Positions 966-1,276 of a stretch of 1,276 nt of DNA are shown here, piece by piece. The notes beneath the pieces are model-generated. The model worked only from the letters and a program-made list of their open reading frames with translations. It searched no databases and was not told the DNA's origin. The first letter of the stretch is position 1; each line of letters opens with the position of its first letter. The position numbers were made by a program, and so were the translations under genes. This DNA is from Escherichia coli (GTDB taxonomy: Bacteria > Pseudomonadota > Gammaproteobacteria > Enterobacterales > Enterobacteriaceae): the NCBI RefSeq assembly GCF_003334255.1, contig NZ_QOWU01000167.1; one strand, given 5' to 3'.

Positions 966-1084
966 TAACTTTCATCCTTCTGATCGTTTTCGAATTTGCT
1001 TTCATTTTCTTGCTCCTCATAAGGCTGATGTCGTTGTCCTTGTCGTTCATCTTGCTCAGTCAATACCCAACGTTGTGCTGTAAC
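965..1084 (-). other. Orphan 39-codon open frame ending in TAA that overlaps the sctQ ATG (TAATG); possible relic of a decayed upstream sctP-like gene
   Basis: Minus frame 1084..968 is open (VTAQRWVLTEQDERQGQRHQPYEEQENESKFENDQKDES) and its stop at 967..965 overlaps the sctQ ATG. It has no ATG or GTG start and is bounded upstream by TGA, TAA and TAG at 1087..1085, 1090..1088 and 1099..1097. No homology established. Confidence 0.2.
975..981 (-). promoter_or_regulatory. Ribosome-binding site of sctQ (AGAAGGA)
   Basis: Minus-strand sequence cAGAAGGAtgaaagttaATG: AAGGA core 9 nt upstream of the sctQ ATG at 965..963. Confidence 0.45.
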
Positions 1085-1142
1085 TCATTATGAAAACTAT
1101 TTAATTCCCTCATCATTGATAAGGTTGGACATCTCTTTCAAC

Positions 1143-1276
1143 ATGAGAGTCATTGAAGCTTTCGACCAATTTAGCGGAATGATAGGGCTTGGCGCTTCAG
1201 GTAATGACTCCAACTTATTGATAGTGTTTTATGTTCAGATAATGCCCGATGACTTTGTCATGCAGCTCCACCGATT
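1143..1276 (+). CDS. Possible 5' end of a divergently oriented plus-strand ORF (partial, product unknown)
   Basis: Plus frame with codon starts at 1029, 1032, ... has no stop from 1029 to the window end (82 codons). First ATG at 1143 gives MRVIEAFDQFSGMIGLGASGNDSNLLIVFYVQIMPDDFVMQLHR... No convincing SD upstream (an AAGG at 1121..1124 is too far). Could equally be a chance open antisense frame. Confidence 0.2.
   Translation, partial: MRVIEAFDQFSGMIGLGASGNDSNLLIVFYVQIMPDDFVMQLHR

Follow-up and report, generated by a model that had tools for sequence, protein, structure and literature searches.

The subject of this analysis is a 1,276-bp stretch of Escherichia coli DNA (hereafter the window) that carries an sctQ gene of an injectisome locus, and in particular the 311 bp upstream of this gene (positions 966-1276). 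A preliminary description had pointed out that the needle-length regulator gene of the SctP type, expected there in tight coupling to sctQ, is not present in intact form. In a megablast search of 5,426 complete E. coli genomes, positions 72-1199 were placed, at up to 99.7-99.8% identity, in the island of the second type III secretion system of E. coli (ETT2), and the sctQ gene is therefore epaO of that system. In these genomes the island is located between yqeF/yqeG and tRNA-Gly (glyU)/actS/xdhA. The homologous complete genomes all show this yqeF/G-glyU context with epa genes downstream; the window's own flanks end in insertion sequence 1 (IS1). The 311 bp were found to consist of four unrelated pieces, namely the tail of eivJ, a 12-bp spacer, the tail of a glycoside hydrolase family 15 (GH15) gene and 77 nt of IS1 (Table 1).

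Table 1. Features located in the 1,276-bp window, in order of position; labels of the form L005 denote comparison loci
Feature	Position	Strand	Remarks
IS1 left end (left inverted repeat side, IS1 nt 1-77)	1..77	-	Exact match; 100% to annotated IS1 in L002/L003
sctQ' open reading frame, 304-aa chimera	51..965	-	Residues 1-296 native; last 8 aa and stop from IS1
Native sctQ (epaO of ETT2)	78..965	-	Codons 1-296 of 315; start ATG 965-963
Candidate internal translation start for short SctQ-C	357..372	-	ATG 359-357 (codon 203), GAGGAG 372-367, 6-nt spacing; read from sequence
eivJ 3' remnant (SpaN/InvJ/SctP family)	965..1084	-	39 codons and TAA
Common ETT2 deletion junction	1084..1085		Breakpoints 8,737 bp apart in O157 86-24 (~L005 13121-21856)
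12-bp spacer	1085..1096		Native sequence after GH15 stop codon
GH15 3' end (pkgA / full-length ygeQ)	1097..1199	-	Partial codon, last 33 codons and stop
IS1 right end (right inverted repeat side, last 77 nt), second copy	1200..1276	-	Exact match; extends past right edge

The deletion scar upstream of sctQ

Translation of the minus strand between 966 and 1276 revealed stops in all three frames. The longest open runs were two in frame 0, of 43 (1097-1225 region) and 39 codons (968-1084), and one in frame 1, of about 31 codons, and the list of open reading frames (ORFs) held no minus-strand ORF longer than 42 aa in this segment. The earlier observation that no intact minus-strand frame is present, and that open stretches extend over about 25-43 codons, was thereby confirmed. 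The missing ORF is no statistical anomaly; it is what is expected of a deletion scar joined to the end of an insertion sequence.

The piece adjoining sctQ encodes the peptide VTAQRWVLTEQDERQGQRHQPYEEQENESKFENDQKDES, followed by a stop, of which 37 of the 39 residues (95%, E=4e-25) are identical to residues 151-189 of the 189-aa EivJ of O157 86-24. Its TAA (967-965) overlaps the start codon of sctQ by one base (TAATG), and this overlap is kept in all four aligned loci, including O157, L006 and L003. Both homology and position, directly upstream of and coupled to sctQ, place the remnant in the SctP family, as anticipated in the preliminary description. The same arrangement is known from spaN(invJ)-spaO of Salmonella pathogenicity island 1 (Inv-Mxi-Spa family), where an SctP-family gene directly precedes and is coupled to sctQ, but here only 39 codons of the gene are left, and where an intact SctP frame would continue there are two stop codons and GH15 sequence unrelated to it. 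The same 120 bp are labeled 'SpaN/EivJ family, incomplete, missing N-terminus' by the Prokaryotic Genome Annotation Pipeline (PGAP) in L001-L004 and L007. No NCBIfam match was obtained for the 39-aa eivJ and 33-aa GH15 fragments because they are too short, and they were identified by direct comparison instead. The SpaN model NF011862 matches residues 97-178 of O157 EivJ with its C-terminal part (E=3.5e-10), at a score under the curated cut-off.

The full length of 189 aa is that annotated in O157, and EivJ would be longer if ECs3728 is its N-terminal part. This upstream 77-aa ORF (L005 13642-13875, L006 13645-13875), annotated in one genome as an N-terminal fragment of SpaN/EivJ, leaves eivJ split even in 'undeleted' loci. 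The needle-length gene seems to be disrupted in most lineages independently of the 8.7-kb deletion described below.

The GH15 tail is identical at 32 of 33 residues to residues 504-536 of a 536-aa protein of L006 (E=7e-20). In matching genomes the region is annotated as GH15 or 'hypothetical protein', and in the window IS1 separates it from the remainder of the gene. Two undeleted strains, O157:H7 86-24 (L005) and 806883-9-2019 (L006), served for comparison by BLAST: positions 72-1089 aligned with epaO and the 3' end of eivJ, and positions 1084-1199 aligned with the 3' end of the GH15 gene, 8.7 kb away. In both strains the distance between the two halves of 966-1199 amounts to 8,737 bp. The breakpoints lie in short imperfect direct repeats which read, in gene orientation, CACAATGATG in eivJ and CATAATGAG just past the GH15 stop. 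Located between them are the 5' three quarters of eivJ, ECs3728, eivI (SpaM-family), eivC (sctN), eivA (sctV), eivE (InvE-type gatekeeper), eivG (secretin sctC), the regulator gene eivF and a GhoT/OrtT-family toxin gene (eiv gene names from the table in PMC3977695).

The junction was present in 1,937 of the 5,426 complete genomes, counted as coverage of at least 80% of the 234-bp query 966-1199, and many of these were 100% identical across it. O157-type genomes matched the two halves of the query at separate places. The deletion has been described as the eivJICAEGF or 8.74-kb deletion of ETT2 (PMC5422975, PMC11068852), and a 2024 review lists an isoform in which 8.74 kb are deleted at the island's right end (PMC11068852); the deletion scar upstream of sctQ is thus already known. 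With this isoform (see also PMC3977695 and PMC6030553) the window shares the gene order, the junction to the base and presumably the chromosomal site, whereas the two IS1 copies are extra in the present allele.

The truncated sctQ gene and its annotation

The 304-aa product of the sctQ' ORF matched SctQ family models of NCBIfam above their curated cut-offs: NF006018 with 447.7 bits (cut-off 223, E=1.5e-134, residues 2-298 on positions 3-286 of the 303-position profile) and TIGR02551 with 176.9 bits (cut-off 100.8, E=9e-52). The protein is recorded with the Pfam families SpaO_N and FliMN_C, and NCBI assigns it to E. coli under the name YscQ/HrcQ family protein. A Shigella origin, which the density of IS1 might suggest, is not supported in view of this E. 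coli label. A 315-aa E. coli EpaO is 96% identical to it over residues 1-298, the full-length members of the same 90% cluster have 315 aa, and the SpaO SPOA2 structure 4yx1 aligns with it up to the IS1 junction. The C-terminal SPOA2 domain is incomplete, with the native sequence ending at residue 296 of 315 and the last 17 profile positions unmatched. As full-length EpaO has 315 residues and the alignments end at the IS1 junction, the C-terminal 19 residues have been lost; the left IS1 insertion has cost the gene these last codons and with them part of SPOA2. The frame continues into IS1 as GDAANLLI, followed by a stop. An exact-protein look-up returned the 304-aa protein solely from contigs shorter than 2 kb; the deposited '304-aa SctQ' is a chimera without the end of SPOA2. 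Further inside the gene, the position of the codon-203 ATG (Table 1) is presumably that of the known internal start giving SctQ-C in SpaO/YscQ.

The ATG at 965 is the family-typical start of sctQ, because it corresponds to the family model's position 3 and yields the 315-aa protein common to many genomes. The 328-aa SctQ annotated in O157 begins at an upstream ATG within eivJ, in a different frame. According to the alignment, O157 86-24 (L005 ~12966) is without one base at the equivalent of window position 931, in epaO codon 12. PGAP calls epaO 'frameshifted' in non-O157 genomes, and this label on the 315-aa EpaO is probably an artefact of the O157 variant having been chosen as the reference, which calls for caution when genomes are scanned by such flags.

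IS1 copies at the contig ends

Direct matching to the IS1 termini revealed exactly 77 nt of the element at either edge of the window: its first 77 nt stand in reverse complement at positions 1-77, and its last 77 nt, likewise reversed, at positions 1200-1276. Both copies are on the minus strand, in direct orientation, and enclose a 1,122-bp ETT2 remnant. The left copy runs on past the window edge and interrupts the 3' end of sctQ/epaO at 77/78; two longer contigs (L009 and L010) extend further into IS1 with 100% identity. A gene at 1-62 of L011 matched PF03400 (DDE_Tnp_IS1). The window is a contig from short reads that breaks off at IS1 repeats, and the 77 nt per side probably represent the trace of a short-read assembler handling a unique segment between repeat copies. 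The whole window was 100% identical in five independent assemblies/runs, one of them GCA_003334255.1 (QOWU01000167.1, a 1,276-bp contig). In each of the five the contig is under 2 kb long and ends inside IS1, in four cases at both ends, and the longer ones extend deeper into IS1 on either side. Further source-strain assemblies are GCA_001299315.1 and GCA_965136505.1.

The right junction (1199/1200) is identical in E. coli HCP17S3_I4 (L003 5129-5896), where the IS1 is 768 bp long and annotated as IS1A transposase. It is flanked by a 9-bp target duplication, GGCGCTTCA, which corresponds to window positions 1191-1199. For the right copy and the L003 element, the terminal sequences, the 768-bp length and the target duplication of IS1 were thus all found, and the insertion in HCP17S3_I4 is a plain transposition into the GH15 gene. 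When the right junction was searched as an 80-nt query, HCP17S3_I4 was the only complete E. coli genome with a single-piece match; PI24 matched it in two pieces and in another context.

Origin of the fragment and competing explanations

We consider it almost certain that the window is inert debris of a decayed injectisome locus, ETT2, left by the common 8.7-kb deletion and subsequent IS1 insertions. The deletion would have occurred between the short direct repeats, from just past the stop of the GH15 gene (pkgA/ygeQ) to about codon 150 of eivJ (O157 annotation), and would have joined eivJ's last 39 codons to the tail of GH15. IS1 would then have entered the GH15 gene 34 codons ahead of its stop, 115 bp upstream of the deletion junction, and a further IS1 would have removed the last 19 sctQ codons. 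What each piece is, where the breakpoints lie and how frequent they are in the population was established here, and no finding speaks against the identification. The sequence in which the events took place and the lack of a function of its own for the remnant are what we infer. The needle-length regulator, the ATPase, the export gate SctV, the secretin, the gatekeeper and the EivF regulator cannot be encoded here.

The suggestion in the preliminary description that the upstream gene had decayed into a pseudogene at a defective locus holds in substance, given the eivJ remnant. The mechanism is different, being a single 8,737-bp deletion together with IS1 in place of decay by frameshifts, and the match split across frames that such decay would leave was replaced by a sole eivJ remnant in one frame, ending at the deletion junction. 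That description had also treated 966-1276 as one upstream region. It was right that there is no intact gene in it, but it had not remarked that 1200-1276 is IS1, that 1097-1199 is a GH15 tail and that sctQ itself is cut by a second IS1.

Some observations weigh against the proposed course of events. Besides being short, the direct repeats are imperfect, and the junction misses a clean crossover by one base, which bears on the recombination that we infer between them. An 80-nt query spanning the left IS1/sctQ junction gave no single-piece match in the 5,426 complete E. coli genomes. Four records reached a coverage of 80% or more, either as two joined pieces or as low-identity IS1 matches elsewhere, and the exact 40-nt pattern of this junction had 0 matches in a collection of species-representative genomes. 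In addition, the window stops inside both IS1 copies, and in this strain each may have arisen by simple insertion or else mark a deletion or rearrangement mediated by IS1. Should the left copy have entered by simple insertion, a 9-bp duplication that starts with CACTTCAAC is expected.

The different architecture raised earlier, with sctQ at the head of a transcription unit of its own, would make the segment a genuine intergenic or regulatory region of a remodelled and not a decayed locus, with a promoter in 966-1199. The single weak sigma-70-like site in 900-1276 is located upstream of sctQ on the minus strand (1141-1112, TTGAAA-18-AATGAT, 9/12), but one such site equals the expectation from shuffled sequence (1.0 +/- 0.9), and the promoter/terminator scan as a whole remained at chance level. 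A search of Rfam at a permissive threshold detected no RNA element, the sole match being a chance-level hit to a Bacteroides sRNA (18.7 bits, with the gathering score at 174.8). Transcription could also arrive from upstream. In undeleted strains the GH15 stop is directly followed by an inverted repeat rich in G+C, GCGGTCCT...AGGACCGC (L005 ~21832-21855), which is probably the GH15 terminator; this hairpin falls inside the deleted 8.7 kb, and read-through from GH15 into eivJ'-epaOPQRS may therefore be possible in deletion strains without IS1. Any residual transcription of sctQ' in the present allele would depend on IS1 read-through or on a promoter arisen by chance. Against a dedicated leader, both halves of the region are coding tails of other genes at 95-97% protein identity, sctQ is truncated and its partner genes are deleted. 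A transcription unit headed by sctQ is accordingly very unlikely.

The absence of an ORF could also be an artefact, either of sequencing frameshifts, as the preliminary description had considered, or of misassembly at the IS1 repeats, since the contig ends are such repeats, 77 nt each, at which short-read assemblies break or mis-join. The interior of the window (72-1199) is nevertheless collinear with complete genomes at 99.7%, with 966-1199 being 100% identical in many, and the difference from the intact locus is a single 8.7-kb deletion with no small indels. Recovery of the identical sequence in five assemblies/runs and of the junction in 1,937 complete genomes excludes sequencing frameshifts, and an artefact of any kind is scarcely conceivable.

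It is highly improbable that the fragment has a role of its own, either as a Tn9-like composite unit, or through SctQ' or SctQ-C (codon-203 ATG, GAGGAG) being expressed by IS1 read-through and interacting with another type III or flagellar sorting platform. Two same-orientation IS1 copies around a 1.1-kb segment resemble Tn9-like structures, but mobility of the segment as a unit is unsupported, and homologous DNA was located at the ETT2 site in every complete genome examined.

As debris of ETT2, the window is of small biological weight, representing a further allele in the mutational attrition long documented for this system in E. coli. Widespread 'mutational attrition' of ETT2 is reportedly the title finding of Ren et al. 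2004. For genome scanning it shows that, where a secretion-system gene lacks a neighbour, the cause can be a deletion scar common at the population level, and that contig ends of exactly k nt of an insertion sequence are assembly breaks. Among the complete genomes, the GH15 IS1 of this allele (1199/1200) is shared with HCP17S3_I4 and the sctQ IS1 (77/78) with none of those searched. A related genome group, with HUE1 (L004) as an example, carries IS1 24 bp further into sctQ. The ETT2 island is a recurrent target of insertion sequences, with many independent deletion isoforms. IS1 or IS5 was observed at other ETT2 positions in other strains (L004 4001-4100, L007 5097-5830, L008 2674-5822, L002 3325-4080), among them the sctQ site named above, a site directly behind the sctQ stop, epaS/epaR and eivA.
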